A stretch of DNA of 64,000 nt, taken from the sequence record ON286973, one strand, 5' to 3'. The position numbers and the translations under genes are program-made. Under the pieces are notes generated by a model. The model was not told the origin of the DNA and searched no databases. It saw only the letters and a list, made by a program, of their open reading frames with translations. Shown piece by piece: positions 30,341 through 51,745 of the stretch (its first letter is position 1; the number at the start of each line of letters is the position of its first letter). The DNA is from Escherichia phage A51.2.

Positions 30341-30476
30341 AACTATCTATACTGTTCTTAAAGAGATTGCGTTCTACGCAGATCTTAGCCAGGCACCTTT
30401 ATGGGAAAAGAGCATGTATTTAAAATGGTGCGTTAATTTAGGGAGACCTTCCAGTGTTTCAAGCCATGTTTATTGA
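30324..30476 (+). CDS. Hypothetical small protein
   Basis: ORF; start refined after GGAAGGAGAG. Confidence 0.3.
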   Translation: METAPKTIYTVLKEIAFYADLSQAPLWEKSMYLKWCVNLGRPSSVSSHVY

Positions 30477-30576
30477 GATGCTATCTGGGATATTGTTACT
30501 GGTAGCCATCTTAGGTGGTGCAGTTCTGATGTATAACTATCTTGAAAAAGGAGACAGCAATGGTAAAAAATAAATC
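30469..30576 (+). CDS. Small membrane peptide, 35 aa (MFIEMLSGILLLVAILGGAVLMY...)
   Basis: Micro-ORF with one transmembrane segment; below track cutoff. Confidence 0.3.
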
Positions 30577-30745
30577 TTTAGAGCAGGCTGAAAACCTTCT
30601 CCACGAGCTGGTAAAGGAGTGGAAAGTTGAATACTCAGATTTTAATGCACGAGAGGGTGAAGAATATTGGCCTACGGAGCGCTCAGAGGGCGAATGGTAT
30701 CAAGATTTTATAGAGTGGTTATATCAGACGTGCGATGAGGGGTGA
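30560..30745 (+). CDS. Hypothetical protein
   Basis: ORF; start refined after AAGGAGACA. Confidence 0.4.
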   Translation: MVKNKSLEQAENLLHELVKEWKVEYSDFNAREGEEYWPTERSEGEWYQDFIEWLYQTCDEG

Positions 30746-31212
30746 CGATGTTTGTTAAATATGTAAAAACGTGCCTCAACAGTCTTGGCAGAGAGCATTG
30801 GTACACCTTGCTTGAAAAAGGGGAAATTTTAACAAAATCTGGAAAGATAACTTTGATACCTCTTGATAGTAAAGGTAAAGACCCGTCACGACTTGTTATA
30901 GATGATTACGTTACAGGTGTGACGTTCGAGGTCTCTGTGGAGAGGTTAATACGCAGAGCTGGCGGCCCTTATGACCGAAGAGAGTATGTTTTCGATTCCG
31001 TTACAGAGATGGGGGAGCATCCGTCTTTAATGTTCAGGATGGTAATCAGAGATATGAGGTCATCTATAGATAGGATCGTAAAGGACATTAAGGAACCTTT
31101 TAGAGTAAAAGTTAAGAAGTTTTTCGATTCTAAGATTAACATACTCGCCGTTGCACTAGGTGTAGTTCAACTTCTGTTAATTTTGCACTATTTTGAACTA
31201 CTATTTAAGTAG
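30742..31212 (+). CDS. Hypothetical protein with C-terminal hydrophobic segment
   Basis: ORF. Confidence 0.4.
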   Translation: MTMFVKYVKTCLNSLGREHWYTLLEKGEILTKSGKITLIPLDSKGKDPSRLVIDDYVTGVTFEVSVERLIRRAGGPYDRREYVFDSVTEMGEHPSLMFRMVIRDMRSSIDRIVKDIKEPFRVKVKKFFDSKINILAVALGVVQLLLILHYFELLFK

Positions 31213-31274
31213 TAGTTGAGATATGGCACAAAGGATGTGCCATAGTGAAATAAACTAAGAAAGAGGTAGAGAGA

Positions 31275-31622
31275 ATGCCAAAGATTAAAACGTTATTACT
31301 GTGGGTAGCTGTTTTAGCTTTTATAGGGTACTGGACTTGGGAAACTGAATTAAAAGATATCGGATATACCAGTCTTGAGAGCAAGGCGTGCATTGGCATA
31401 ACCGATGCGTTCAGGCAAAATGCTATGGATCACGAATGTGTTGATGCAGATATAGATGAGAAACTGTCTAAGGACAAAGATTTTTACCATGGGCATGCTT
31501 TACTTGATAGTGGTGACACTGTAGAGTTCTGGTCGTGGTTTCGTGAAGATGGAACAATAAAAACAGCAGTAAAGATCTCTAACAAAGAGTTAATGCTGTT
31601 GCAGCAAAAGGAGGCTCAATGA
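31275..31622 (+). CDS. Hypothetical protein with N-terminal transmembrane anchor
   Basis: ORF; LLLWVAVLAFIGYWTW. Confidence 0.4.
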   Translation: MPKIKTLLLWVAVLAFIGYWTWETELKDIGYTSLESKACIGITDAFRQNAMDHECVDADIDEKLSKDKDFYHGHALLDSGDTVEFWSWFREDGTIKTAVKISNKELMLLQQKEAQ

Positions 31623-31906
31623 TCTGGATATCCTATGCTGATGGCACCATGCTGTATACTGCAGGTACCAGATATGAAGTTCAGGAGAACGATAAAAAAT
31701 TTATCGTAAAAACATTTGACAAGGACGACAACCTTTTGCTAGAATTGACTTACAAAGTTGGAGAGGTATCCAATATCCAGTTGGATTGTGGTCATAAAGA
31801 TAATCCACTCAAAAAACCTGGAGTAGGTAAGGCTTCAGAAGAACGTCTGTCTCGTATTGCAGAAAGCGTTTCTCCCCAAAAATCTAAGAAGAGGACTAGA
31901 AAATGA
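31619..31906 (+). CDS. Hypothetical protein
   Basis: ORF. Confidence 0.4.
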   Translation: MIWISYADGTMLYTAGTRYEVQENDKKFIVKTFDKDDNLLLELTYKVGEVSNIQLDCGHKDNPLKKPGVGKASEERLSRIAESVSPQKSKKRTRK

Positions 31907-32097
31907 AAAACTTACGTTTTAACACTTATTACTACAACACATTGAATGATTTGTATTATATTGTTCGAAGTAAAAGTCCTGAAACAGTCCTATTCTGCCG
32001 CGAACCTTTCAAAGGGGAGGAAGTAGAGTCTGAGATGAATGTTAGCCAGATCACCTCTTTGTTGCTCTCAGGCGCAATGGAAGAAGCAATATTCTAA
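31903..32097 (+). CDS. Hypothetical protein
   Basis: ORF. Confidence 0.35.
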   Translation: MKNLRFNTYYYNTLNDLYYIVRSKSPETVLFCREPFKGEEVESEMNVSQITSLLLSGAMEEAIF

Positions 32098-32115
32098 ACC
32101 AGGCAGGAGGGTTTT

Positions 32116-32301
32116 ATGAAGCACTATTGCCTGTCTGGTAGAATGGGTGCAGATTGTGATTGGGTTTTCTTAAAACTTGTCAGCATTCGAGAGTTCATCC
32201 CAGAGGAAGAGCAAGAAAGCGAGCTGATGTCATGGATCAACCATTACGGTAACACTTTTCGGCATGTTAAGGTAGAAGAGTTGCCAAGCGAGGCTGATTG
32301 A
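32116..32301 (+). CDS. Hypothetical protein
   Basis: ORF. Confidence 0.35.
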   Translation: MKHYCLSGRMGADCDWVFLKLVSIREFIPEEEQESELMSWINHYGNTFRHVKVEELPSEAD

Positions 32302-32303
32302 CT

Positions 32304-32393
32304 ATGATTGCATCAATATTAACGTTTATGGGTGGCGTGGCATTCGGATTCATTGTTTGCCTGTTTATAGTGATTATGTCTATGCGAGGCTGA
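32304..32393 (+). CDS. Small membrane peptide, 29 aa (MIASILTFMGGVAFGFIVCLFIVIMSMRG)
   Basis: Micro-ORF, single transmembrane segment. Confidence 0.3.
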   Translation: MIASILTFMGGVAFGFIVCLFIVIMSMRG

Positions 32394-32396
32394 ATT

Positions 32397-32693
32397 ATGA
32401 AACTTTTTGAGTGGTTTAAAAAGTTTAAATATAAAGCTGTAGCCATCGTGCCGTGGTCCATTCAGTGGGTTGATGAAGGTGGTCTACCGATACCTGGTGA
32501 CAAAGATACTGGGTACTGGATTATGATGGAGAACGGGTTTGGAAAGCGAAAGTATACGTGCACAAACTCTACTCGATCTGCACTTAATAGAGTGCCTGGT
32601 TACAAACTTATGGTTGTGTGGAAAATGTCAGGCGTGCCTCCAGCCAATGCTCAATTTCTTACTGACAATCCGACCACGGTAGAGGGAGATTGA
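32397..32693 (+). CDS. Hypothetical protein
   Basis: ORF. Confidence 0.4.
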   Translation: MKLFEWFKKFKYKAVAIVPWSIQWVDEGGLPIPGDKDTGYWIMMENGFGKRKYTCTNSTRSALNRVPGYKLMVVWKMSGVPPANAQFLTDNPTTVEGD

Positions 32694-32977
32694 TAATGAA
32701 AAAGATTAACAGTAGTGAAGTAGAGTTTAAACTTGTCGGAAAAGGCACTTACTGGGAAGTTCGTCAAAAGGTATATTTGTTCGGTCTTATTCCCTACTGG
32801 TCTAAATTCTACTGGGGAGCTAACGAGTTGGGAAGATACGCCACCAAATCAATGGCACTTATTGGTATAGCAGAGTACATTGCAGCCCGAGACAGGGTTG
32901 GAACCACTTATTACTACACTGCTGACGATATTCGTAACAGTGTTTACGTCCCACAACCACCTGATGGAGACCGTTGA
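32690..32977 (+). CDS. Hypothetical protein
   Basis: ORF. Confidence 0.4.
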   Translation: MIMKKINSSEVEFKLVGKGTYWEVRQKVYLFGLIPYWSKFYWGANELGRYATKSMALIGIAEYIAARDRVGTTYYYTADDIRNSVYVPQPPDGDR

Positions 32978-33201
32978 TGAAAGTTAAAGTTTTAGATTCA
33001 AGCTTCTATATTGGTCAGGAGCCTTTAGTAGGAAAAGTGTTTACTGCTGTCCCTAACGAAGATTACCCTGACCTTTTAAAAATAAAAGGAGCAGATCTTA
33101 TTGCCGCTGGTGCATCTCAGGAATGCTTTGACAGTCAGTGGACCTATAACTTTGCCCTAGGTGAGGATGTAGAGGTAGTGGAGGACGATCATGAAGGTTA
33201 A
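32974..33201 (+). CDS. Small acidic protein, paralog family A (MMKVKVLDSSFYIGQ ... VEVVEDD)
   Basis: Clear paralog of 33191..33445. Confidence 0.5.
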   Translation: MMKVKVLDSSFYIGQEPLVGKVFTAVPNEDYPDLLKIKGADLIAAGASQECFDSQWTYNFALGEDVEVVEDDHEG

Positions 33202-33445
33202 AATTCTTGATTCTAACGTCTACTTGGGACAATCCTTCCTGAATGGAAAGGTCGTTCCTGCGGTATACTTTGAAGGGTTGCCGTGGGATGATCCTGTGCG
33301 GCAACATCACAGTTATGTAGGCCACAACGTGGTGTTTATCTTGGGATCAGACCTGATCACCGCTGGTGCACCTGAATATTATTTCGGGGAAGAGTCCTAC
33401 TATGCCTTTGGGGTAGGGTCAGATGCAGATATTGTAGAGCTGTGA
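33191..33445 (+). CDS. Small acidic protein, paralog family A (MKVKILDSNVYLGQ ... DIVEL)
   Basis: Clear paralog of 32974..33201. Confidence 0.5.
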   Translation: MKVKILDSNVYLGQSFLNGKVVPAVYFEGLPWDDPVRQHHSYVGHNVVFILGSDLITAGAPEYYFGEESYYAFGVGSDADIVEL

Positions 33446-33457
33446 TGGGTAACCGTT

Positions 33458-33856
33458 GTGAAAAATAAACTGTTTAAAGTTACAATGAAAATTCGCGGGG
33501 CTTGGAGCGTAAAGCAAGGGCGTATTCCAGAATTTGAGAAAGACTTCTACGTAGTCTCCACCTCGGAGGAGGCTGCATGCTGGCAGGCTGGCTATGCCTA
33601 TGCAAGAACCTGGTACGAAGGATACCAGACTGGGGGCTATGACGGAGAAATTATCAGCAAGGGTGTAGAAGAAATTAATGTGTTGACAAGTGAAAAAGTT
33701 TTTGTTATAGTGCATCCAGATTCCAGAGTGAAGCATTACTGGAATGCCAGAACAAAAACTTGGACACCGTTTGCAGATTCTGCTACGCCACTTTTAAACC
33801 AGAAAGCTCTTGACTCTGCCCCAAGTTATGGGGTTGTTGAAGAAAAGCTAAACTGA
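33458..33856 (+). CDS. Hypothetical protein, paralog family B (HPDS ... HYWN ... WTP)
   Basis: Paralog of 35668..36063. Confidence 0.45.
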   Translation: MKNKLFKVTMKIRGAWSVKQGRIPEFEKDFYVVSTSEEAACWQAGYAYARTWYEGYQTGGYDGEIISKGVEEINVLTSEKVFVIVHPDSRVKHYWNARTKTWTPFADSATPLLNQKALDSAPSYGVVEEKLN

Positions 33857-33873
33857 AACAGTGAGGTGTCACC

Positions 33874-34164
33874 ATGATGGATTTAATTCTAAATATTGAT
33901 AACGCAGGAGAGTTTAAAGACGATGGTGTAACAAGCATGGACAAACCCTGCTCTGCTAAGGTTGACTCAAAATGGACCTACAAGTTTGACGGAGAGATCT
34001 TCGCAAATGATGAGAAGGTTGTAGATGCTGCAGCCATTTTAAACGCTCTAGGGTACGACCCTGTGAATTCTTTGATCAAGGATCCTGTTGAGTTTGCAGA
34101 GTATGTTCGAAAAATGGCAGATCTTGCTGTGGATATTTTAAAAACTATCGACAACAAGCTGTAA
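33874..34164 (+). CDS. Hypothetical protein
   Basis: ORF. Confidence 0.4.
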   Translation: MMDLILNIDNAGEFKDDGVTSMDKPCSAKVDSKWTYKFDGEIFANDEKVVDAAAILNALGYDPVNSLIKDPVEFAEYVRKMADLAVDILKTIDNKL

Positions 34165-34170
34165 AAACTG

Positions 34171-34199
34171 TTGACACAACGCTTCAGATTTAGTATCAT
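34171..34199 (+). promoter_or_regulatory. Sigma70-like promoter, TTGACA-17bp-TATCAT, upstream of the HPF-like gene
   Basis: Read directly. Confidence 0.55.
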
Positions 34200-34248
34200 T
34201 GTTTTCAAAGAGAGATAGTTATTCCCTCTTCCTTAAAAGGAACACGTT

Positions 34249-34569
34249 ATGCAAATTGAAATCACTGGCAACAATGTAGAAATCACAGAAGGTATGGTAT
34301 CTTTTATTTCCCGCAAAATGTCCAAGCTGGAGCGTTTACATCCCTCTGTTAACTATGCACGTGTGAGTGTAAAAGTTGAAAATGATCACCAGGAAGTTAT
34401 GGCGTTCATTTTTGACAATTCTGGAAAAGAAGTTATTGCCAAGGCTAAAGGCAGTGATGCTTACGAGGCAACTGACCGTATGGTAGATGTTGCAGCACGT
34501 CAGCTGGCTAAATGCGGTGGAAAGAAAGGTAAGGGGAAAGGCAAAGTAAAGATTGACTTTGGAGAATGA
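34249..34569 (+). CDS. hpf: Ribosome hibernation promoting factor / RaiA (YfiA) family protein
   Basis: N-terminus MQIEITGNNVEITEGMVSFISRKMSKLE is near-identical in pattern to E. coli HPF MQLNITGNNVEITEALREFVTAKFAKLE; basic Lys/Gly-rich tail. Confidence 0.85.
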   Translation: MQIEITGNNVEITEGMVSFISRKMSKLERLHPSVNYARVSVKVENDHQEVMAFIFDNSGKEVIAKAKGSDAYEATDRMVDVAARQLAKCGGKKGKGKGKVKIDFGE

Positions 34570-34706
34570 GGTGCTACAATGGGTGTGATTAAGAAATTAG
34601 TCCCAAATGTAGAGATTGCATGCTTTGAAATTATGTTTGCAATCGCAGTTGTAGTTAATGTGTTAGGTTACGGCTATTAATATCAAATAATTGAGGAGAC
34701 CTCTAA

Positions 34707-34976
34707 ATGAAAATTAAATTATTCCAAACTGAGCTGGCAGACAAAAATTGTGGACTGGTTGAAGGCATGATTGTTGAAGCACAACCAGTGGACTATATGA
34801 AGGTGGTTCGTGATGCCCTAGGTGAAGGTTTTGATCTGATGGAGCCAGCTCTGCGAGAAGATGTTATCGAGATGGCTAAAAAGCACACACCTGAAGGTTT
34901 GGTGGTGTTTGTTGCACCGGGTAACGGAGAAGAGTTGATTGTAACTCCTGATGTGTATGAGATTGTAGAGGAATAA
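34707..34976 (+). CDS. Small acidic protein, paralog family A (MKIKLF ... EIVEE)
   Basis: Family A signatures. Confidence 0.45.
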   Translation: MKIKLFQTELADKNCGLVEGMIVEAQPVDYMKVVRDALGEGFDLMEPALREDVIEMAKKHTPEGLVVFVAPGNGEELIVTPDVYEIVEE

Positions 34977-35067
34977 TCCTGCTTGGATTAGCATACTTCC
35001 TCGCTAAGGAAGATTTGTAATTATTTGTGGGAAAGGAGTCCCAATCTCTTACCAGAGGTGATACTAT

Positions 35068-35331
35068 ATGATTGTTTATTTTAAAACTTCAGGTGGATAC
35101 CCTGATTCTCAAAGCTTGATCGGAAAAACGTGCACAGCATACTCACCTCTTGATGAGGAGGTAAGCGATATTTTACGAAATATGTATCGGATTGACCCCC
35201 AAGAAGCCTTTGATCAAAACCTTGTATTTGTCAAGGGCTCAGATATGAAGTCTTTGGGAGCATTCCCTGAAGCAGATGATGATGCCGTTTATTCGTTCAT
35301 GACTCCTTTTGAAGCTATGGTTGTTGGGTGA
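35068..35331 (+). CDS. Small acidic protein, paralog family A-like
   Basis: Similar size and composition; ends AMVVG. Confidence 0.4.
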   Translation: MIVYFKTSGGYPDSQSLIGKTCTAYSPLDEEVSDILRNMYRIDPQEAFDQNLVFVKGSDMKSLGAFPEADDDAVYSFMTPFEAMVVG

Positions 35332-35335
35332 TAAT

Positions 35336-35668
35336 ATGAAAGTACGCTTTATTGGTGAAACAATTCCTGTGCATCTCCGGTCGCCTGAGGATTCTGCAGA
35401 TCTTGCATCTCAAAAGGCGAGAGGTTATGATAAGAAAGTAACCTCAACCGATGTAGTGCTTGAGGCTACTAGTCTACCTGACCCTGCTGCATTCTTTAAT
35501 CATTATGGGTACTATTTCAGCAATCTGATGAATATCGGTGAGCTTGTGTTTATTAGTGGTGGAGAAATTGTTAGCAAGCTTGGCGGCGATCCGGATGTCT
35601 TTCATGAAACCTGTCCTTTTGCATTTGTGGTGGGTTCAGATGTGGAAGTTATTGAGGAGGTGCGGTAA
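35336..35668 (+). CDS. Small acidic protein, paralog family A (MKVRFIG ... VEVIEEVR)
   Basis: Family A signatures; start refined to internal ATG 35336. Confidence 0.4.
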   Translation: MKVRFIGETIPVHLRSPEDSADLASQKARGYDKKVTSTDVVLEATSLPDPAAFFNHYGYYFSNLMNIGELVFISGGEIVSKLGGDPDVFHETCPFAFVVGSDVEVIEEVR

Positions 35669-36063: not shown

Positions 36064-36072
36064 TTTTCTTGC

Positions 36073-37080: not shown

Positions 37081-37367
37081 TGAAAGATTTGGTTAAGATT
37101 AAGATTAAAGATACCAATGGAGAACTCAGCCATTTTGGAATTAAGGATGGTGACGAGCTGATCGCACACTTGCCTACTAAGGAGGTTGTAAGCAAAGCAG
37201 TTGCCGGAGAAGAAGCTGCAATGCAGGCTGCAGGTGTGGATGAAAACTATGTAGCTATGTGCATGTGCCGAGATCAGGTTGTTCTGTATAAAGCGTATCG
37301 ACCAAACGGAGCCACGGAGTGGCTTGTATTCCGACCCGAAGGATATGAAATCTTAGAGGCACTATGA
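37080..37367 (+). CDS. Small acidic protein (family A-like; MKDLVKIKIKD ... EILEAL)
   Basis: ORF. Confidence 0.4.
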   Translation: MKDLVKIKIKDTNGELSHFGIKDGDELIAHLPTKEVVSKAVAGEEAAMQAAGVDENYVAMCMCRDQVVLYKAYRPNGATEWLVFRPEGYEILEAL

Positions 37368-37456
37368 TAAATCTTGCCAAGGTTGCAACGGCACTGTTAA
37401 TTATTTGCTGGTCTGTAACCTTAACACTGTGTCTTGTATTTCAGTGAGGTGCTTGT

Positions 37457-37720
37457 ATGAACATCCTGATGTGGGTTATAGCAGTGGCGTTTGTTGCATG
37501 TTTTTGCTGCTGGGTTGCGGTGAGGATTTCTGTAGCTACCCTTCGGAAGTTGGGGTTCTCAGAATGGGATATTAATATCCTTTCTTTTCGCAATGAAACA
37601 ATCTCAGCCGCCCTGCTTTGTAAGAAATTCAAGTGGGAACCTTGTGAGGTCATGAGCTATCTAAGAACAGGCGATATCCCTGAAAGATTTAAAAAAGTTC
37701 TTGACGGCAAGGATAAATGA
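37457..37720 (+). CDS. Small membrane protein
   Basis: N-terminal transmembrane segment ILMWVIAVAFVACFCCWVAV. Confidence 0.4.
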   Translation: MNILMWVIAVAFVACFCCWVAVRISVATLRKLGFSEWDINILSFRNETISAALLCKKFKWEPCEVMSYLRTGDIPERFKKVLDGKDK

Positions 37721-37875
37721 CAGTATAGTGACTAACAAGAGGTGAGGAGTGACTGATTTTACTGAAGCTTTAATGATGGCCTTGTCTGTTTTAGCGCTAT
37801 CGGTGTGTTTTGGGGCGTTATTCACATCTCTGGTTAAAGTTTTACATACAGTATTATTACCCAAGGAGCGCAGTA

Positions 37876-38127
37876 ATGACGAAGATTGACTTGAATGCTG
37901 GTGATCATGTTGTTGTCAAATGCATTGGAGATTATCTTGGATTCACAATCGGCAATACTTACGAGGCGGTAGTGGCGAAGGTTTATCATGATAAAGTCCT
38001 CAGTCTTGTATTTGACTGCGATGATGATGGGGATGACCGATACGTCTGTGAGGTGCTGGCACGAGACGATAGTGAAGACCAGAAATTCCTGGTTATTGAA
38101 CTGAACGGTATTTTTGTAGAACGTTAA
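37876..38127 (+). CDS. Hypothetical protein
   Basis: ORF; start refined to ATG 37876 after AAGGAG. Confidence 0.4.
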   Translation: MTKIDLNAGDHVVVKCIGDYLGFTIGNTYEAVVAKVYHDKVLSLVFDCDDDGDDRYVCEVLARDDSEDQKFLVIELNGIFVER

Positions 38128-39157: not shown

Positions 39158-39370
39158 CAAAATATCAAATTTAAGACACCTAGAACGCTCTGTGGCGTCC
39201 TTTTCTTTATCTGGTGCACGATTGCATACCTTGGGTAGTTAATTTCATTACAGAGCGTTTAAGAGCTCCCTACAAACAACCCCATATTTCGAGCGTAGCG
39301 AGAACGCACGTCCGTTTTGACCCAAATCACCATACGCTCGGATTTTAACCAAACCCTCGCGGCGTTTCTG

Positions 39371-39399
39371 TTGACACATTACCGATCCAGTGATAGTAT
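39371..39399 (+). promoter_or_regulatory. Sigma70-like promoter, TTGACA-17bp-TAGTAT
   Basis: Read directly. Confidence 0.45.
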
Positions 39400-39419
39400 C
39401 CACACATCGTTTGGAGAAT

Positions 39420-39521
39420 ATGGGATACACAATGAAAACATTGTCAGAGGTTTTGGTGGTGATCCTGATGATCATTACGTCCATAGTGGCTGTTGCCGGA
39501 ATACTCACGGGTGGAACATGA
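39420..39521 (+). CDS. Small membrane peptide, 33 aa (MGYTMKTLSEVLVVILMIITSIVAVAGILTGGT)
   Basis: Promoter and GGAGA RBS upstream; the long track ORFs 39317..39730 (+) and 39248..39589 (-) overlap it in other frames. Confidence 0.3.
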   Translation: MGYTMKTLSEVLVVILMIITSIVAVAGILTGGT

Positions 39522-39851
39522 TAAACACACATGCATCTGAAGAGACATCCAAAGGAGTGACTATATGTCCCTTGACTGAGCCAGTGCAAGAGGAAAACTT
39601 CGATTCTGAAGATTCTTCATCTTCGCTCCAGGTAGATCCTGAGGCTGATGACCTGACGTGGGAAGACATCGTAGATATCTGGTTCTCTATTATGCCTGAG
39701 CACGAAGAGTTCAGGGGTGGTAGACTATGAAGCACCGAGCCCACACAGGTTCCTCATGCTGAAGCATGGCCTGAAGAGGCAAACGTGCATAATTCCTGTG
39801 CATCGGAACGTATAAAACCCTGTTCACACTCTCATTTCCAGAGGAGATTTC

Positions 39852-40067: not shown

Positions 40068-40194
40068 CGCACAATTAGCTGCCCGGCCAAAGTGCTGGAA
40101 GCACCTATAACACATCTTTCAACTAAATTTCCCACCACCACAATCACTTACCTTCCACACATGACTGTTTGCTTGTTTAGTGAGCAGTCATGCC

Positions 40195-40222
40195 TTGACA
40201 TTCTTGCCTATCCTGATAAAAT
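40195..40222 (+). promoter_or_regulatory. Sigma70-like promoter, TTGACA-16bp-TAAAAT, inside the ORF-free region
   Basis: Read directly; preceded by inverted repeat CATGACTG ... CAGTCATG. Confidence 0.4.
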
Positions 40223-41588
40223 TAAGTTCTTCTCTTTTCTTTTACCGAGTAATTCGGGTTTTCTGTTCTCTTCGGTTTGAAGGGGTATAGAGATACACCT
40301 GAGTGAACAGGGTGAACAACCGAACCATTAGCTATGGCATTAGCATGGCGAAGCGGACGGGTGACGAAAGAGGGGCCGGAGGACACCAGTCACTGCCATA
40401 TGATATATGGGTGATAACCTGAAGAGTCTGAATAAGTGTTTAAGTACCAGTCAGAGGAAAAGGTGAATGGTAGCCGAAGGGGGGAGGGGGGTTTCTTGTA
40501 TCTTTAATTTGTATATTATGTATACACTTGTAAACCAATCTAATCTGAATCTGTTTACCACACAAAGCGGATAGAGACAAATATTGCCTATTAAACTTGA
40601 ATTATTTATAGAAAATACCACAACACCCCTTAAGTCTTTGATTTTACACACAAATCCTACAGATATTCAACCTCCATATTTAACATACTTGTAACATATT
40701 CCATACTCTACCTGCCTGATCAATTTCCCCAACTACATTCTCATATTTCCCCTGTCTGTACTACCCTGCCCCACCGGGAGTCCCGTCATATCTGGCTTTC
40801 CAGCAAATATCACACCCACAAATATCATGCCTGAAGAGGGTTTCATCCCATAATACCTGCCTTGCCTGAAGAGCGCTTCATACACCACGTAAATTTTTTA
40901 ATTGACCTCCCCTGCCCCGCCGGAGAGGTTGGCTTTTCCCACACAGACCTGGAGAGTCAGCCAGAAATATCTGAATAGGCCCAGTTCTACCACGATTTTG
41001 ACCTGACCTACAGGAGCGCTGCCAGGCGGACGAAATGGGAATACTTCTCATTCTTATAACAATTCTCAAATATCGAGGCAGTGAGGCAAATTAATAGGCC
41101 AGGCCGTTCACACAGTGGCACAACATTTGCAACCTATCTTGTGGGGTGAATGAGAATACCTATCATTGTGAGAACCATTATCATTACGGGCAATTTAACA
41201 TAATACCCATTATGCGCACCACTGGCGATCCATACAGGGATTGATAACACGAGTTACAGTTTACGCATATAACAATCATATTTCTTACTATTTGTGTGGG
41301 ATATAGTTAGCAGCCGATAGATTAGATATTGACCTGTGGACTTCCAACCGTCTAGACGTCTAAGCGCCCACACAACAAGGCTTATACATACATTACTGAA
41401 TGTAAACAGGGCCGCAAAAATGCTACCATACCAGTTTGTAAATTTTTCATGCAGCACTTGACAAAGAGGAGGAAAACTTGTCTGACACAATGTCACACAA
41501 TATGACACAATAACGGCTGTTACCATTCCATATCTCACTGTTTACGCATAGACTGTTTACGCCTGGATAGTTTACACAGATATGATAA

Positions 41589-41885
41589 GCCATGCCATTC
41601 GTTTGCATGAAAACAATTAACAAGATAACAATCGACAAGTTAATAATCTTTCGCTGGCTATGCCAGGTGACTAGGTCACCCCTTCGGGCGTTCCTATGAC
41701 ATAATATAAAAGCAGGGCAACTATTAGCAGATCTATAGTTGCCTTGCTTGTTATGTCATGATTAACTAAATACAAGGCAACTATGATCTGATTAATAGTT
41801 TGCAGACAAACTATCACGGGGGTGATGGTTACTGCTTTTATATTATGTCGCGACTCCGTCGCGCCATGCCATTCGTTTGCATAGT
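41589..41885. repeat. Composite repeat: 20-bp direct repeats GCCATGCCATTCGTTTGCAT (41589 and 41865) flanking nested inverted repeats (CATAATATAAAAGCAG/CTGCTTTTATATTATG; GGCAACTAT/ATAGTTGCC; GGTGAC-TAG-GTCACC; CGCGAC/GTCGCG)
   Basis: Read directly. Confidence 0.7.
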
Positions 41886-42494
41886 TGCCTTATTGTTATG
41901 AATAAAACAATTGCATTGTTAATGATTTCTTATCTTTCTATTAGTCATCTAATGATTTCAGTCAGGATAGTAATGTACAGTAAACATTAGACGACTAAAG
42001 ATTTCTCTGTTTATGATAACCTATCGTGACAATTTCGGACTGTTTACGAAAAATGTTGACACCTGAGCTGATTTATGTTATGCAGTTTACACGAATAATT
42101 ATTTTATACAGGTATTGACTATTCTGTTATTCTATGGTTGGAATAAATACTTAGCAGACTATAGAATGGTGAGCGTACGTAAATTCTGAGATCTGGCGGC
42201 TATAGTTATACTCGATTTTTCACGTAGAACGCGCTTTTGTGGTTATGTAAGTGTATGACTTATAAGAATTTTTATTTGTTGACAAGATATTGAAGATGTG
42301 CATCAGGTTAAAATTTGTGCAATAGCGGCATTACGTGCAATTTTGAGGGAGAAAACGGGTAAAAATGGCCCTGCTACCACACAATGAAAAATTATGCAAT
42401 AGTTATTTTATATGTATGTTTGTACAGTGTGTGGGATTGATGGCTAGTCAATTATTCCACTTGCCAGGCTGGGCCGTTTGTGGTAGGGGGAAGA

Positions 42495-42523
42495 GCAGAC
42501 AAAAAGAAAGGGGCCTAAGCCCC
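42495..42523 (-). terminator. Rho-independent terminator for the minus-strand block: GGGGC-TTAG-GCCCC followed by UUUCUUUUUG (minus-strand sense)
   Basis: Read directly, just downstream of the minus gene ending at 42544. Confidence 0.7.
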
Positions 42524-42543
42524 TTGATAATTCAGTTAAAAAA

Positions 42544-44428: not shown

Positions 44429-44577
44429 TTTTACCGCTCTTTAAAACAAGGTGCCAACCGTTTCCAATAGATCACTGACCATCAGGACAATACTGATCAG
44501 CACATGCCTAACCATAAGGGGAAAGAGCGCCAGCGATCCCGCCACAATCCCCAAGGTGATGATTATCTTTCTCATGG

Positions 44578-45178: not shown

Positions 45179-45182
45179 CTTA

Positions 45183-45286
45183 ACCGATACCGTGGGAAGA
45201 TAGGATCATGTTAGCCATAGTTGCAACCCATCCAACCGATAATGCCAGGCCAACTACTACAACCGTGAAAATTTTCTCTAACATGA
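45183..45286 (-). CDS. Small membrane peptide, about 34 aa (MLEKIFTVVVVGLALSVGWVATMANMILSSHGIG)
   Basis: Micro-ORF with one transmembrane segment; coordinates approximate. Confidence 0.25.
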
Positions 45287-45361
45287 TTCTACCCTCATTA
45301 ATGGCGGGAAGTATTCCCGCGCTATGTAGTACACTTTACCAGATTGTTGACTGTTGTCAAA

Positions 45362-46470: not shown

Positions 46471-46526
46471 GGTTTTAACTCCTATCTATCCGGTTAATGA
46501 TTGGGGGCCGCCCCCCGACACGTCCT

Positions 46527-46554
46527 ATTATCCATATTGTAGGGCTTGATGCAA
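46527..46554 (-). promoter_or_regulatory. Sigma70-like promoter on minus strand, TTGCAT-16bp-GATAAT, within the conserved element TATTATCCATATTG
   Basis: Read directly; second copy at 47694-47721. Confidence 0.5.
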
Positions 46555-46672
46555 GTACTTCTTTAAAAAATTTTTTAAGCGCCTTGGGGGTAGCTGTAAC
46601 GCTAAAATAATAAAGGCCATGCAACCGCATAGCCTTTATGTGATTATATCGCTGCAGGCCCTGCTAGGGGCC

Positions 46673-47023
46673 TTATTTTGCATTCTTGCTTGTATTGCCG
46701 CCACGGTACCAACGTTTGCGGTGAAAATGGTAATAATCACCCTCGGCATTGAACATCAGATGATTTTCAATAACCAGCTTACGAAGGTGGGCCGGATCTT
46801 GTTCCATTCTTGCCAGATTCCGGCTGTTGTTACGTAAGCGGATAAATTCCATATTCAGGCCGTTGATTGCAGCATGGATGTCAAAGTAACCACCTTTGAG
46901 ACGTTCACGCATGGCGTTAAGCTCAACACAATATACAGATTTCTCACAAATCAAGGTATTAGCCAGGGCGCGGACCTGGGCAAGGGGGTTAAGCTCATTA
47001 AGGTAATATAGTTTTACTTTCAT
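46673..47023 (-). CDS. Hypothetical protein
   Basis: ORF. Confidence 0.4.
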   Translation of the reverse strand: MKVKLYYLNELNPLAQVRALANTLICEKSVYCVELNAMRERLKGGYFDIHAAINGLNMEFIRLRNNSRNLARMEQDPAHLRKLVIENHLMFNAEGDYYHFHRKRWYRGGNTSKNAK

Positions 47024-47040
47024 AAAATCACCTGCTGAAA

Positions 47041-47349
47041 TTAGTTTGAGAAAACATCGTTCACAATAGCGATCACAATGCCGCCCACCTTGTCACGGTC
47101 AACAATGCACAAATCACCATAGATCATGTGGTAGTCTGGATGATCTTTCACAGAATAGTCAATAAGTGTTTTCTTGTCGTCCAGCTTCGTAACTTCCATT
47201 CTCATAACGATATGAGAATCATCAAAGGCATTATTCCGGAAAGTCATAGCCTGACCACCAGGGCACCCGGTGATCTCCACTTCCACACCATCTACGATCT
47301 GACCATCAAAGAAATAAAGATTATTAGCCTGGATAAACATGTCTATCAC
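47041..47349 (-). CDS. Hypothetical protein
   Basis: ORF. Confidence 0.4.
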   Translation of the reverse strand: MIDMFIQANNLYFFDGQIVDGVEVEITGCPGGQAMTFRNNAFDDSHIVMRMEVTKLDDKKTLIDYSVKDHPDYHMIYGDLCIVDRDKVGGIVIAIVNDVFSN

Positions 47350-47384
47350 TCCTTGTTAACTGCGTGGTATTTTAACAGGGTTTA

Positions 47385-47432
47385 AATTTACTTTATCGAT
47401 GGCCCTGAAGTCAAGGCCATCTAAAAATAAAT
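47385..47432 (-). promoter_or_regulatory. Conserved roughly 44-bp intergenic element TTTACTTTATCGATGGCCCTGAAGTCAAGGCCATCTAAAAATAA (copy 1 of 3); hairpin GATGGCC/GGCCATC; promoter-like on the minus strand
   Basis: Read directly; near-identical copies at 51125-51169 and 51746-51792. Confidence 0.55.
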
Positions 47433-47433
47433 T

Positions 47434-47634
47434 TTACAGGCCTACAATCTCTTTGATTCGTTTAACTGCTGCCTCAGCGCCTTGGGGGTAGAAATTATGA
47501 TAACCAATCACGCGAGTGATACTAATCGCCGTTTGATGATCTTCATAGTCGCCCTTGAAGATTTCTTGACCGTCAATCAGCACGGCAATTTTTTCTTCTT
47601 TTTTGAAGTTAATAACGCGGATATTGTTGCTCAT
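47434..47634 (-). CDS. Hypothetical protein
   Basis: ORF. Confidence 0.4.
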   Translation of the reverse strand: MSNNIRVINFKKEEKIAVLIDGQEIFKGDYEDHQTAISITRVIGYHNFYPQGAEAAVKRIKEIVGL

Positions 47635-47693
47635 CTTCTTTCTCCTCTTCGGGCTTTTGTTTGTGTGGTGGGGATGTTTCCCCGTTGATTGTT

Positions 47694-47721
47694 ATTATCC
47701 ATATTGCGGACCGGATTGCAA
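47694..47721 (-). promoter_or_regulatory. Sigma70-like promoter on minus strand, TTGCAA-16bp-GATAAT (second copy of the TATTATCCATATTG element)
   Basis: Read directly. Confidence 0.5.
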
Positions 47722-47778
47722 CACCCTGAAAGGGAAATTTTTTAAAAAGATAGGCCCCCATGATCGGGGGCCGTTCTT

Positions 47779-47892
47779 AGTTACTTACAGCGATAAAGTA
47801 CATCCCTACGCCTAGCAATATTTCAAGGGCGATGATCTCAAGCCATACCATAACCCGGCGCGCCTTATCGGTACGGGGCTTATCCTTGGTTG
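47779..47892 (-). CDS. Small membrane peptide, about 37 aa
   Basis: Micro-ORF with hydrophobic C-terminal half. Confidence 0.25.
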
Positions 47893-48138
47893 TCATCGTC
47901 TCCCCCTTTCTTCCTGGTAGTAGTGACGTGGTTTACAATGGCCCCCAGGAGTACCATCACCACGCACATCCCAAGAAAAATTATCTCCGCTGTTGTTCGG
48001 TCCATTGTTATAAAATTCCTCAAGATCAGGCTTGAAAATAAAGCGTTCGTTATTGAATCCATCACGCCAGGCGGCTGGATTCAAATCTTCACTAAAGGGA
48101 TTAATTAACGTGGCATTATTTAAACGGTTGGCCCACAT
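47893..48138 (-). CDS. Hypothetical protein
   Basis: ORF; start refined to ATG 48138 after GAGAGGAA; alternative overlapping frame 47880..48065 not excluded. Confidence 0.3.
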   Translation of the reverse strand: MWANRLNNATLINPFSEDLNPAAWRDGFNNERFIFKPDLEEFYNNGPNNSGDNFSWDVRGDGTPGGHCKPRHYYQEERGRR

Positions 48139-48487
48139 ATTTTCTATTCCTCTCAAATAGGCGATCCGCCTCAGTTAAACATATCTCATGGGCTTGATCT
48201 CTGGTTTTAGCCTCATCGAAAACTTGTTGTGCCAGGCTGCAGCGTAGGGAGACTGGAAGATCACTATAATAGGCGTTGACAAACGTTTGAGCGTCGTACA
48301 GGTCTGAAAATACTTTACCCTTTCTATTATTCCCCTTGTCAACAATTGCAAGGATAACCAATACAATAGTTGCAACCACTCCCAGGAAAATAGATATAAC
48401 AAACCATAGAAAAGCGGATCTACCCATCTTGCCAGCGATCCAGGCGTTGAACAAGGCAACTACTACAGCCAAAATAATAAATTCCAT
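48116..48487 (-). CDS. Membrane protein (two transmembrane segments)
   Basis: MEFIILAVVVALFNAWIAG ... FLWFVISIFLGVVATIVLVILAIV; start refined to ATG 48487. Confidence 0.45.
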   Translation of the reverse strand: MEFIILAVVVALFNAWIAGKMGRSAFLWFVISIFLGVVATIVLVILAIVDKGNNRKGKVFSDLYDAQTFVNAYYSDLPVSLRCSLAQQVFDEAKTRDQAHEICLTEADRLFERNRKYVGQPFK

Positions 48488-48551
48488 TCTATGTACCTCT
48501 TTTGCAGTTCTGTTTAACAATAAGGCGGCAAATATGCCGCCTGTTACCTGA

Positions 48552-48932
48552 TTAAAAATTATCGCCGTAAATCTTTCCGCTTTCTGCCCACACCACCACG
48601 CGGGGCATGTTATCCCATACGTCTTGTTTTAGATTTAACGCGTGCAATTCTTCTGTGGTGCTCATACCAGGCACGGGCTGATTGTATACTGCAAAACGAC
48701 CACCTGCATAATCATAAGCTAAAGTCAAATCGCACTGAATCATTTTCTTGATCATGGCGTTGAGCATAGCATTAGCCGCATATTGATCACGTTTTAAAGG
48801 CAACTCTTTGATTAGTTTGCGATAGTTTTCAATGTGATCGCACACTGTTTCACGTGGAAGATCTTTCATATCCTCGCGAAAGGTAACCAGGTTAAACATA
48901 ACGGTGTCAATAGCTTTAGTAGTGTTTTTCAT
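48552..48932 (-). CDS. Hypothetical protein
   Basis: ORF; start refined to ATG 48932. Confidence 0.4.
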   Translation of the reverse strand: MKNTTKAIDTVMFNLVTFREDMKDLPRETVCDHIENYRKLIKELPLKRDQYAANAMLNAMIKKMIQCDLTLAYDYAGGRFAVYNQPVPGMSTTEELHALNLKQDVWDNMPRVVVWAESGKIYGDNF

Positions 48933-49021
48933 GATGTTTTCCTCTTTGTTTTGTGTGGGGCAAGTCATCTCGCCCCTTGAGTTTTAATATAGCAGGTTTT
49001 TAAATTATTGCAACACTTTAT

Positions 49022-49645
49022 TTATGAAAAACTCATCTCACCATATTCATCTACATCAAACCGCCAATCATTGGCTTCAATAAGGCCGATCAGGTTTTCG
49101 GTAGTAAACTGTTCAAGATAGGCCTCCTCAAGGTCTACATAAACCTTGCGGGATAGCTCCCGTACCGTCTCGGTGATCAGCTCTTCCAGATCTTCCACTT
49201 TATTTTCTTGTTTTGCGGTCAGATCTAGCCAGGTAGTATCAATATATCCGCTTACAGTGTTTTCATGGCTGTAATGGCTGTACTTGTCGCGTTCAACACT
49301 GGCTGATAGTTCGCCATCGTGCATTGTGCCGAACAAGTGACGAATTGATCGGAACTTGGTCAGGGCCTTGACTTTACGCAAGAATTTCTCTAAGTCTACA
49401 TTTTCAGCACTAATTGACGCGCCATCGCCTTGACACCAAAAGCCGGACCAATGTACATCGGTATCTTCAAGGCCGTACTCTGGAAAAACCTGTTCTTTAT
49501 AGTATTCAATTACACTTTCTGCAAAAAAGTTATCCCCGCTGTGTTCTTCTCTTTCGCGGACCATTTCAATAGCTTTTTCTTTTTGTTCGTCGGTCAGCAC
49601 GTCGAAAGATAAATTGTAACCTGTGGTAATGTTAACGGTGGTCAT
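49022..49645 (-). CDS. Hypothetical acidic protein
   Basis: 207-aa ORF. Confidence 0.45.
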   Translation of the reverse strand: MTTVNITTGYNLSFDVLTDEQKEKAIEMVREREEHSGDNFFAESVIEYYKEQVFPEYGLEDTDVHWSGFWCQGDGASISAENVDLEKFLRKVKALTKFRSIRHLFGTMHDGELSASVERDKYSHYSHENTVSGYIDTTWLDLTAKQENKVEDLEELITETVRELSRKVYVDLEEAYLEQFTTENLIGLIEANDWRFDVDEYGEMSFS

Positions 49646-49719
49646 GATATTTTCTCCTATTTTCTTTGTTAGTGGCGGGAAAACTTCCCGCCTGTGTGTT
49701 TAAGTATACTTATTGAGAT

Positions 49720-49980
49720 TTACTTGTCAACACTATTTTTTAAATTATTGTGGCGTAAAATGTTCAAGATCTCTTCAACGTCATCAACACGGCGGCAATT
49801 TTTAAACGCTACCAGTTGCCCCAGTATTTTAATCACTGGACGGCCTTGCCAGTGCCCTTGGAGAAAGCGAGCTTTAACTTTATCGGTGGAACTATCACGC
49901 CACCAAATGGCCTTGTTGTTGCAGTAGTAAAAATTATTCAGGACAACATCAACTTTATCAAAATTTTTTAATTTACGCAT
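49720..49980 (-). CDS. Hypothetical protein
   Basis: ORF. Confidence 0.4.
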   Translation of the reverse strand: MRKLKNFDKVDVVLNNFYYCNNKAIWWRDSSTDKVKARFLQGHWQGRPVIKILGQLVAFKNCRRVDDVEEILNILRHNNLKNSVDK

Positions 49981-50179
49981 GGCGTTTACTCCTTTCTCTC
50001 TTTGATGTGGTTAGTATAGCTAACCTGTTTAAGATGTCAAGCTTTAAATAAAATCACTATCAATGATATTTTTAACGCCATAAAACGGCCCTAAGCGATG
50101 TTTTCAGGTTAAAGGGGGCGATTGCATAGGTGGGGCCTTTTTGGCGCTTACAGGGCCAACCGGGGGCGCTATTCGTAGG

Positions 50180-50212
50180 ATAGAAATAAAAAGCCCCGCA
50201 CAATGGCGGGGC
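50180..50212 (-). terminator. Rho-independent terminator (minus-strand sense GCCCCGC-CAUUGU-GCGGGGC followed by UUUUUUAUUUC)
   Basis: Read directly, just downstream of the minus gene ending at 50221. Confidence 0.75.
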
Positions 50213-50220
50213 GTTGGTTG

Positions 50221-50418
50221 TTATTTGCCTTTGTGGCGGTATCGTTCCGCCTGTCGTTCACGTTCCAAAAGCAGGCCCGGTAATTTGCGATCATAATGAT
50301 TCCGCCAGATCTTCCCAAATCTTTTTGGCTTATTCAGTTTATTGTTGCGCTGGCGGCGTTCCGGCAGCTCTTCGGAAGCATGAGATCGCTTTACAATCTT
50401 CTCAAAATTAATCTTCAT
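50221..50418 (-). CDS. Small highly basic protein (Arg/Lys-rich)
   Basis: ORF; start refined to ATG 50418; nucleic-acid-binding character is inferred from composition only. Confidence 0.4.
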   Translation of the reverse strand: MKINFEKIVKRSHASEELPERRQRNNKLNKPKRFGKIWRNHYDRKLPGLLLERERQAERYRHKGK

Positions 50419-50761
50419 ATATTCCCCCCTTGCTAACTTCAATATTGGCCTGAATAGCCCGGATACGGCGCTTTATAACTTCCTGATCTGTGTGATCGTA
50501 TCCCCAAAAGTCTACGATTTTTGCGCCTCCAGCCTTTAGGCGGTATAGTGTTTCTTGCATCTTGTAAGCCGGGATCGGTCGCGGTGTTACCTGGTCGCCC
50601 TTCTCATTCTTGTACTTGATAATATAGTCTTCATTGTCGTTGAATACCCAAAACGGGTATTCTGTAAGGGCGTTGCTATCTTTTTCGTTTTTAGATTGGA
50701 TCTTGTTTACAATTAAAGCCGTAGCAATAGCGCCAATAATAAAACTTGCCCCGCTGATCAT
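50408..50761 (-). CDS. Membrane-anchored protein
   Basis: N-terminal transmembrane segment ISGASFIIGAIATALIV; start refined to ATG 50761 after AGGAG. Confidence 0.4.
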   Translation of the reverse strand: MISGASFIIGAIATALIVNKIQSKNEKDSNALTEYPFWVFNDNEDYIIKYKNEKGDQVTPRPIPAYKMQETLYRLKAGGAKIVDFWGYDHTDQEVIKRRIRAIQANIEVSKGGIYED

Positions 50762-50836
50762 GTACTTTCTCCTTTCATTGTATTGATAAACTATCTTTAT
50801 AGATGGCCCTGCTACCAGGACCACCGAAAAAACAGC

Positions 50837-51082
50837 TTATTTGACGATACCGACAAAACAGATCCCGCCTTCCCCTATATAGGCAATATCGGTAATTTTA
50901 TAATTTGTCAAGATCCGCGTGTTCAGATCATTAATAAAATCGGTCATCGCGTTGGTGTAGTTGTCTTCCGTGTCTAAGGCATAATCCCAGGTGTAAACCT
51001 TTTTACGTCCGAAGCCTTTTACCATGATACGGGCGCTTTTGGTGTTGGTAGGGGCATAATATTTGGTGATTAGTGCTGCCAT
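50837..51082 (-). CDS. Hypothetical protein
   Basis: ORF. Confidence 0.4.
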   Translation of the reverse strand: MAALITKYYAPTNTKSARIMVKGFGRKKVYTWDYALDTEDNYTNAMTDFINDLNTRILTNYKITDIAYIGEGGICFVGIVK

Positions 51083-51124
51083 GGTTTTAACTCCTCTGAA
51101 TTAGTTCAGTGTTAACAGTATAAA

Positions 51125-51169
51125 GTTTACTTTATTGATGGCCCTGGAGTCAAGGCCATCTAAAAATAA
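51125..51169 (-). promoter_or_regulatory. Conserved roughly 44-bp intergenic element (copy 2 of 3)
   Basis: Read directly. Confidence 0.55.
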
Positions 51170-51171
51170 TC

Positions 51172-51513
51172 TTACTCGTTTTCTTCCAGCTCCGCAAGCT
51201 CTTCTTTTGCTTCTTCTAACTCTGTCTGTAGTTCCTGGTATTCTTCATCTTCCTCAATATCCAGGCTGTCGATGTAGTCGCTAAATCCGCAGCGGTAAGC
51301 GATAGGATCTAGCTCCTTGAGGATACGCGACGGAAGAAAAGAAATGTTTCCGATCATAATTTCGCCGTAGATCTCGTCTAACCATTCATCATAGTTTTCG
51401 TCGTACTTGTCCTCGTCGATTTCAAAGTTATCGATCTTGTTCTCAAGGTCTGCGATCTGTTTTTTCAGCGCGGCGATCTGCATAGCTTTTTCTGCGGCGG
51501 TCATAGTAGTCAT
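51172..51513 (-). CDS. Acidic coiled-coil protein
   Basis: ORF. Confidence 0.4.
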   Translation of the reverse strand: MTTMTAAEKAMQIAALKKQIADLENKIDNFEIDEDKYDENYDEWLDEIYGEIMIGNISFLPSRILKELDPIAYRCGFSDYIDSLDIEEDEEYQELQTELEEAKEELAELEENE

Positions 51514-51745
51514 GGTGTTTTCTCCTTTTGTGTGCTCTGGGAAGTTTTCCCGTTTACGTGTTTAAGTATATCGATCTAAGTTAGTTTGTCAATTAAAAAT
51601 TTAAGAAAAATTTTGCAAAACTGTTAGCGCTACTCATTAACATTTGCGCCAGGATGTAACCGACAACGCAAACGATAATAGTTACCTTTGTGTATTGGCG
51701 TGTAGTGCTCATCTTAAAGCCCCCTTTTTTCGCTTAGTTGAGATT

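Follow-up and report, generated by a model that had tools for sequence, protein, structure and literature searches.

Seven small single-helix genes of the rV5-like Escherichia phage A51.2 belong to known families and may encode host-directed membrane microproteins

The window analysed here is a stretch of 64,000 nucleotides (nt) from Escherichia phage A51.2 (record ON286973), and the subject is a group of seven open reading frames (ORFs), designated c1 to c7, which lie between 30 and 52 kilobases (kb) and encode peptides of 29-46 amino acids (aa). A preliminary description of this DNA had listed them as unannotated micro-ORFs for single-pass membrane peptides. All seven were present, a few bases at most from the positions given there; the position of c2 was exact, and the other six needed small corrections of their ends or starts. 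The phage was assigned by sequence to the rV5-like Escherichia coli myophages, genus Vequintavirus, because its top matches (Escherichia phages A6-1, rV5_ev158 and Murica, and Shigella phage CM1) reached 97-98% coverage at ~96% identity; positions 30000-52000 matched 275 phage records in all. The seven ORFs are as follows:

c1, 30454..30573, + strand: 39 aa, MFQAMFIEMLSGILLLVAILGGAVLMYNYLEKGDSNGKK, GTG start; orthologue of rv5_gp126 / ORF131
c2, 32304..32393, + strand: 29 aa, MIASILTFMGGVAFGFIVCLFIVIMSMRG
c3, 37749..37889, + strand: 46 aa, Shine-Dalgarno (SD) sequence AAGAGGTGAGGA; orthologue of rv5_gp151 / ORF156
c4, 39432..39521, + strand: 29 aa, MKTLSEVLVVILMIITSIVAVAGILTGGT, the likeliest form; orthologue of Murica gp132
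c5, 45180..45284, - strand: 34 aa, MLEKIFTVVVVGLALSVGWVATMANMILSSHGIG; promoter-like site at 45360..45333 (-), with c5 as first cistron
c6, 47777..47896, - strand: 39 aa, VWLEIIALEILLGVGMYFIAVSN, basic N-terminus and C-terminal helix with two invariant Glu; rv5_gp176 / ORF181
c7, 51593..51712, - strand: 39 aa, MSTTRQYTKVTIIVCVVGYILAQMLMSSANSFAKFFLNF; orthologue of rv5_gp188 / ORF193

Each peptide contained one hydrophobic helix, as had been described, with an uncharged core of 18-27 residues and a mean Kyte-Doolittle value of 2.35-2.97 over 17 residues. The plausible ribosome-binding sites or coupling claimed for these ORFs were also seen, either as a GGAG/GAGG/GGGGG-type motif 3-10 nt upstream or as an overlap of 4-23 nt with a neighbouring gene. 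Four of the seven (c3, c4, c5 and c7) were the first cistron after a sigma-70-like promoter motif, and c3, c4 and c5 began 20-50 nt after such motifs, each with 10/12 matches to the consensus. The signals flanking the ORFs were as follows:

37701..37729, + strand: sigma-70-like promoter motif TTGACG-17-TATAGT, a consensus match only, just upstream of c3; its -10 is conserved in the alignment
39371..39399, + strand: sigma-70-like promoter motif TTGACA-17-TAGTAT with TG extension, preceding c4
47753..47772, - strand: intrinsic-terminator-like hairpin, GGCCCCCGATCATGGGGGCC plus T-rich tail, 4 nt past the c6 stop
51592..51565, - strand: promoter TTGACA-16-TATACT directly after the c7 stop, annotated as P192 in rV5

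Each ORF with its flanks was aligned to up to 12 relatives (Murica, MiataMamis, I29, FV3, HMD-6, rV5, B9-1, phiWec193, Mangalyan and three IMG/VR contigs) at nucleotide identities of 78-99%. A scan of IMG/VR with two neighbour proteins gave only these three close relatives, and GenBank phage records formed the main comparison. In the synonymous/nonsynonymous test, reported as omega, distinct alleles were counted per codon column in all three frames. Conservation of the reading frame in relatives had been set beforehand as a check, and frame, length, start and stop were kept in the 8-12 relatives available per ORF. The start codons GTG and ATG interchanged in c1 and c3, and indels were in frame, in alignments down to ~78% nucleotide identity. 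Across c1 and c3-c7 the coding frame gave omega values of 0.08-0.40, and the other two frames gave 0.5-3.3, not significant.

The c1 ORF was intact in 11/11 relatives, with 25 synonymous and 7 nonsynonymous changes (omega 0.08, p 3e-11) and a selection signal that was not significant in the other frames. Its start was GTG here and ATG in B9-1, FV3 and HMD-6, it shared 23 nt with the gene before it and 14 nt with the gene after it, and it corresponded to phrog_15251 over its full length. The earlier interval for c1, 30469..30576, was in the right frame but was 3 nt off and began at an internal Met. The c3 ORF, with GTG here and ATG in most relatives, was intact in 12/12 relatives (omega 0.29, p 5e-4; phrog_16755), and its 3' end overlapped the next gene by 14 nt. 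For c4, omega was 0.31 (p 6e-4; phrog_34195) when counted from the start at 39432, and its stop overlapped the start of the next gene (ATGA). The ATG at 39420 proposed earlier, giving 33 aa, is possible but was missing in one relative, the uncultivated virus genome (UViG) 3300010279. The maximal GTG start at 39390 was rejected, as it lies inside the conserved promoter and is followed by an in-frame TAG in 4 relatives. Both the TTGACA and the -10-bearing stretch GTGATAGTAT before c4 were conserved in 12/12 aligned relatives. An antisense ORF at 39248..39589, considered in place of c4, had no coding signature (omega 0.74, intact in 8/12) and was rejected.

On the - strand, c5 gave omega 0.40 with p 2e-4 in a dedicated alignment and belonged to phrog_14631. 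Two alleles of c5 were found, strongly different in the N-terminal half, in which length, helix and the tail ATM(A/S)NMILSS(H/N)GIG were kept. The c6 ORF overlapped the upstream gene (ATGA) and was intact in 11/11 relatives, two of which carried an in-frame 3-nt indel (omega 0.23, p 4e-5; phrog_13629); in the Murica record a terminator is annotated directly downstream of its orthologue. The c7 ORF was intact in 10/10 relatives (omega 0.28, p 8e-6; phrog_16391), with its start displaced by one codon in the most distant one, and its amphipathic tail SSANSFAKFFLNF was invariant in the alignment. The spread in phages was followed by exact cluster look-up, by local tblastn and, for c1 and c7, by tblastn against phage records. 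By tblastn, c1 and c7 were present in 117 and 112 phage records, respectively, all rV5-like and each with at least 80% of the peptide covered.

The c7 gene was preceded by a 51-nt repeated palindromic element at 51746-51796, in which a weaker promoter-like motif was embedded. Four copies of the element were present, at 47385-47435, 50789-50839, 51124-51174 and 51746-51796, each upstream of a - strand gene, one of which is c7. On the - strand the element is a near-palindrome, GATGGCCtTGActTCAgGGCCATC, overlapped by a promoter-like motif, TTGACT-18-TAAACT, and by its sequence it looks like an operator-controlled promoter.

The c2 ORF was nearly invariant within rV5-like phages, of which ~88 records carry it. 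When complete E. coli genomes were searched at the DNA level, the same c2 cassette was found in ten chromosomes at 77-89% identity. Its 29 codons were kept in 12/12 sequences, including 4 E. coli prophage alleles, at divergence of up to 22%, and the amino acid changes within the helix in these sequences were all hydrophobic-for-hydrophobic. When the prophage alleles were added, omega was 0.36 (p 0.0015), and the other frames gave 0.86 and 1.72. Because of the kept codons, the exclusively hydrophobic helix changes and the frame-specific omega, c2 is on comparative grounds a coding sequence. It had no PHROG of its own, with a best match of E 0.004. An antisense ORF at 32267..32461 was rejected as the gene in place of c2; it shares wobble positions with c2 and was broken wherever c2 was absent.

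A uniform selection scan covered the interval 29.5-52.5 kb and took in every ORF of 25 aa or more, 276 in all. Among sense-strand ORFs below 50 aa, p<0.01 was reached only by hydrophobic ones, namely c1, c3, c4, c6, c7 and a further ORF, x10, which is described below; c5 reached p 0.03, and c5 and c2 passed p<0.01 only in dedicated alignments. Two features of the scan bear on its reading: the non-hydrophobic 50-aa gene upstream of c1 was scored only as a 62-aa maximal ORF, and an antisense frame can score as well when its wobble positions coincide with those of a real gene. Every sense-strand ORF below 50 aa with a coding signature in these 23 kb was hydrophobic and single-pass, and length cut-offs therefore remove one functional class in a systematic way. 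The same interval held 19 hydrophobic small ORFs (25-50 aa with a segment resembling a transmembrane helix), compared with 6.4 +/- 2.2 in 100 shuffles. The recurrence of the class had been taken to suggest that its members are real. The comparative data agree that the seven are, but the excess of 19 over 6.4 is no proof by itself, because about half of the 19 were antisense or out-of-frame ORFs that had no coding signature. The seven ORFs are hydrophobic and under purifying selection, they are parts of operons, and their families had been annotated before; we regard the ORFs with high confidence as real protein-coding genes.

The statement that the genes were unannotated did not hold, as records of relatives, Table S3 of the rV5 paper and PHROGs already contain them. 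In that table, ORF131 (c1), ORF156 (c3), ORF173 (c5, in its other allele), ORF181 (c6) and ORF193 (c7) are listed as 'membrane protein, 1 TMD' (one transmembrane domain), labels that derive from TMHMM/Phobius calls (Kropinski et al. 2013, PMC3606486), and ORF145 and ORF170 carry the same label. The rV5 record annotates c1 (gp126), c3 (gp151), c6 (gp176) and c7 (gp188); for c5 it has the other allele, in a longer version (gp168). Neither c2 nor c4 was called in rV5; they were annotated later in BASEL phages (c2, for example, as bas50_0160), Murica and JES2013. Murica annotates c1, c4, c5 and c6, FV3 annotates c3, c5, c6 and c7, and MiataMamis annotates all seven. Among NCBI hypothetical proteins, c4 is present as its 33-aa form and the other six as exact sequences. 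By peptide and by profile, c1 and c3-c7 each matched a PHROG of their own length from end to end (E 1e-19 to 4e-36). Flank alignments and annotation tables showed that synteny with the annotated rV5, FV3 and Murica orthologues holds. The small membrane-protein genes of rV5 and PHROGs 15251, 16755, 34195, 14631, 13629 and 16391 thus represent the same genes, syntenic and with peptides 85-100% identical; the window differs from rV5 in the c2 and c4 genes uncalled there and in the c5 allele, and these families carry no functional assignment. All seven have annotated counterparts and fall into known families, in a phage genus that has been well sequenced. The finding itself matters little, in that an ORF-length cut-off had hidden genes already in the public annotations of the same phage group.

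Taken as a whole, our reading, to which we give a probability of about 60%, is that these are real, catalogued single-helix genes whose products act as host-directed inner-membrane accessory microproteins. The peptides would be translated from ordinary SD sites or by coupling to neighbours and would insert in the E. coli inner membrane during infection, where they may bind or perturb host envelope proteins, with takeover, exclusion of competitor phages or counter-defence as the outcome. Taken alone, the host-directed mechanism falls a little short of an even chance; membrane insertion, expression timing and the host target are what we infer from the features given here. An accessory role directed at the host is suggested by the combination of sequence constraint, open translation signals in operons and sharing across phage groups. 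The constraint exceeded mere hydrophobicity, as seen in the omega of c1, in the invariant tails of c5 and c7 and in the two Glu of c6, and the retention of these features of c5, c6 and c7 outside the hydrophobic helix argues for specific interactions. Since c2 is shared with mEp021-type phages and c5 with phi92 and phAPEC8, unrelated phages in both cases, the two peptides would work without a phage-specific partner, and this sharing points to a host target. Bacterial regulators of the MgrB-PhoQ, AcrZ-AcrB and MgtS kind, which are proposed to bind a larger membrane protein (PMC12648545), resemble the window peptides in their size of up to 50 aa, their single transmembrane helix and their lack of an enzymatic domain; they differ in that no sequence similarity exists and in that the window peptides are phage-encoded. 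Of the three roles put forward in the preliminary description, the modulator of host membrane proteins seems the likeliest, and holin, antiholin and exclusion families were unmatched. If targets are found, the peptides would offer compact tools for probing or inhibiting the inner-membrane machinery of E. coli. This phage group is used in biocontrol and therapy, and the peptides might then also account for host-range or exclusion traits within it.

Several points weigh against this reading. The searches of Pfam, NCBIfam and PHROGs gave no homology to any characterised protein: Pfam and NCBIfam had no holin, type I toxin or named small membrane-protein match to the seven, and PHROGs and Pfam had no exclusion-annotated match (for example, T4 Imm or Sp) for any peptide. 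The literature held no experimental translation, localisation or phenotype data for any of the seven, and no transcriptomic, ribosome profiling, knock-down or toxicity data were found there for rV5-like small genes; in the CRISPRi-ART paper, EdH4 was targeted only at capsid and rII. The promoter calls are consensus matches only, and a hydrophobic composition could partly persist even if the peptides had no specific target. The selection test counts alleles and not phylogenetic events, and an antisense frame sharing wobble positions could mimic its signal; such mimicry was excluded here, as no competing antisense gene was present. Apart from these points, ten neighbour genes compared with PHROGs and Pfam yielded nothing functional beyond one 'virion structural protein', and no lysis annotation. 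Paralogy among the seven peptides was rejected, only the two c5 alleles being interrelated, and so was a lipoprotein or spanin reading, as no lipobox was seen by inspection in any peptide.

Depolarisation, lysis control and pure coupling are all ranked below the host-directed accessory role. The one that survives best, at a low probability, is that the peptides resemble type I toxins and depolarise the inner membrane non-specifically in host shutdown. In size and architecture (<60 aa, one helix, short tails) they are indeed comparable to TisB, Ibs, ShoB, Ldr and Hok (PMC12648545), and the charged residues of the c6 helix could line a pore. However, Pfam and NCBIfam gave no match to a toxin family (Hok, Ldr, Ibs, TisB, ShoB, Zor and others), and no Rfam antitoxin RNA reached the gathering score in the window, a search that covers known families only, so that a novel small RNA is possible. 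Compared with TisB, IbsC, ShoB, LdrD and HokB, which share the size, the single helix and the short tails, the window genes have no detected antisense RNA and are not stand-alone genes with a sequestered SD; they are embedded in operons with accessible SD sequences or overlaps of 4-23 nt. The omega of c1 also indicates constraint beyond the need of a generic pore former.

It is improbable that translation itself is what matters, with the ORFs acting as leader or coupling ORFs that tune a downstream gene and the peptides being functionless. The promoter-proximal position of c3, c4, c5 and c7 and the overlaps of c1, c3, c4 and c6 with neighbours would suit such a role, but the omega range of 0.08-0.40 shows that amino acids are conserved and not merely frames. 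The c5 alleles retain helix and tail despite broad nucleotide divergence, c2 keeps its 29 hydrophobic codons where the genomic surroundings are entirely different, and c6 has nothing downstream to regulate because it is the last gene before the terminator.

A part in the lysis machinery, as holins, antiholins or holin partners that time lysis, is unlikely and stands lower still. Holins are usually roughly 60 aa upward, above the 29-46 aa of the window peptides. As in phage holins and antiholins, these are small phage-encoded membrane proteins with at least one transmembrane domain, here a single helix, and the two in-frame ATGs of c4, lying four codons from each other, are reminiscent of holins with dual starts; the upstream ATG is, however, not conserved. 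The window peptides differ in being shorter, in lying away from the lysin, in having no family match and in following host-type promoters, not the late motif described for rV5. No Pfam, NCBIfam or PHROG holin match was obtained, the best being 12.6 bits against a cut-off of 39.7 bits. The lysin gp89 lies ~22 kb away (in rV5, at 71.5 kb compared with 94-115 kb). Positions 30113-30340 hold the orthologue of rV5 ORF129 (78 aa, two TMDs), and c1 lies two genes downstream of it. The rV5 authors proposed ORF129 as holin solely on its two TMDs, without experiment (PMC3606486). Its PHROG (10061) has no assigned function, it is itself ~22 kb from the lysin, and c2-c7 are near neither gp89 nor ORF129. 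The weakest alternative is that permissive gene finders have called ORFs which arose by chance in AT-rich spacers between genes. It could draw on the ~6 hydrophobic small ORFs expected per 23 kb of shuffled sequence, on nine other hydrophobic small ORFs here that have no coding signature and on the many dubious tiny ORFs in MiataMamis-style annotation, but is largely refuted by the comparative data: purifying selection acts in one frame only, starts and stops are conserved, indels keep the frame, and c7 and c1 occur in 112 and 117 genomes.

Two of the seven genes are shared with other phage groups. The c5 allele of the window is of the phi92/phAPEC8 type and not of the rV5 type, and copies 94% identical to it lie in unannotated gaps there; these two phages belong to a different subfamily from the rV5-like phages:

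L020, 3341-3442: c5 allele copy, unannotated, phi92 / phAPEC8
L021, 11933-12034: c5 allele copy, unannotated, phi92 / phAPEC8

The c5 locus was a mosaic in which the promoter region and the N-terminal half occurred in two very different alleles and the last 14 codons and the gene that follows were common, a pattern that indicates a recombination breakpoint within this 34-codon ORF.

The c2 gene forms a 96-nt cassette between 10-nt direct repeats, GCGAGGCTGA, at 32288-32297 and 32384-32393, and every copy of the repeat provides a stop codon and the SD of the next gene. Murica had one repeat copy and no c2, with the gap falling exactly between the two repeats; c2 was also absent from HMD-6 and UViG 3300010279. 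From the single copy in Murica it follows, on the sequence pattern, that recombination between the repeats would bring the cassette in or remove it. Because the cassette ends in the ...CGAGGCTGA stop-plus-SD junction, such insertion or loss would leave translational coupling undisturbed.

Homologues of c2 were found in tandem arrays of 7-10 ORFs (22-35 aa) in E. coli prophages and in temperate phages of the mEp010 / mEp021 group:

L022, 6015-6966: micro-ORF array, E. coli prophages / mEp021 group
L023, 6015-6754: micro-ORF array, E. coli prophages / mEp021 group
L024, 715-1471: micro-ORF array, E. coli prophages / mEp021 group
L025, 706-1465: micro-ORF array, E. coli prophages / mEp021 group
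L026, 1416-2240: micro-ORF array, E. coli prophages / mEp021 group

Each array ORF had one hydrophobic helix and its own SD, many were joined by ATGA-type overlaps, and the spacing was -14 to +17 nt in uninterrupted runs. The arrays were flanked by lysis genes and a 180-aa ORF on one side and by the small terminase on the other. A c2 homologue headed 4/5 arrays, and a replacement peptide can stand there instead. When seven peptide families with three to four loci each were pooled, the array frames gave omega 0.24 (p 3e-11) and the other frames 0.8 and 1.5. Most array ORFs were left unannotated by PGAP, and megablast found the array in 34/5426 complete E. coli genomes. A 2025 paper on the mEp021-type phage group never uses the words "transmembrane" or "small ORFs", and no literature on mEp021-type micro-ORF arrays was found. 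The first member of the mEp021-group (mEpimmI) arrays was 73-86% identical to c2 and the stop/SD junction was common to both, whereas c2 is solitary in a virulent myophage and its homologue heads a run of 7-10 genes in temperate phages; the arrays held no relative of the other six window peptides. A tentative proposal, which we consider rather doubtful, is that c2 is part of a family of single-helix micro-gene cassettes that moves horizontally and has not been described before, with the variable arrays as a diversifying repertoire directed at host membranes. One array member would then have been captured by virulent rV5-like phages, and exclusion, anti-defence or lysogenic-conversion roles would be possible for the arrays. 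The c2 cassette together with the prophage micro-gene arrays is the sole lead here that may be new.

Three further small hydrophobic ORFs, two or perhaps all three of which are taken as genuine genes similar to the seven, had been missed in the preliminary description:

x8, 34579..34680, + strand: 33 aa, hydrophobic; orthologue of rv5_gp140 / ORF145; phrog_15151
x9, 37364..37447, + strand: 27 aa, hydrophobic, between two genes; start overlaps the upstream stop (ATGA); a weaker case
x10, 44441..44575, - strand: 44 aa, hydrophobic; orthologue of rv5_gp165 / ORF170; start 2 nt past the upstream stop

The x10 ORF was intact in 10/10 relatives (omega 0.44, p 9e-5) and had a 75% identical copy in phAPEC8. 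The x9 ORF was intact in 11/11 relatives, with 8 synonymous and 7 nonsynonymous changes (omega 0.29, p 0.016). The x8 ORF was intact in 11/12 relatives (TAG in Mangalyan); its omega of 0.67 was not significant, with too few substitutions, and a promoter-like motif, TTGACT-16-TACAAT, overlapped its start. The 3' two-thirds of x8 were nearly invariant in nucleotides even in an 80%-identity relative, and the constraint on x8 may be partly on DNA or RNA rather than on the peptide. The hydrophobic ORFs at 41134..41250 and 41671..41817 were rejected, being intact in only 1-2 relatives.

Genes were on the + strand left of ~40.1 kb and on the - strand right of ~42.5 kb, so that two dense arrays of small accessory genes, to which the seven belong, converge. 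They meet in a zone of 2.4 kb, 40100-42540, in which no ORF showed a coding signature and which the rV5 authors termed 'non-coding'. This zone carried at least seven copies of a ACTGTTTACGC-like motif, an exact 20-nt repeat with copies 274 nt apart and palindromes around 41700-41900, and the GenBank records of several relatives start or stop within it; it may be an origin or terminus region. Among the matching records, 24 labelled 'Campylobacter phage' (MG0656xx, for example MG065659, MG065653 and MG065647; host C. jejuni) showed 95-96% identity over 22 kb and are probably mislabelled or contaminant assemblies. A scan of the window for Rfam families and tRNAs gave no match. At 53605-53795, three 52-nt direct repeats with a AAAACGAAAAA core, spaced by 74 and 65 nt, were iteron-like.

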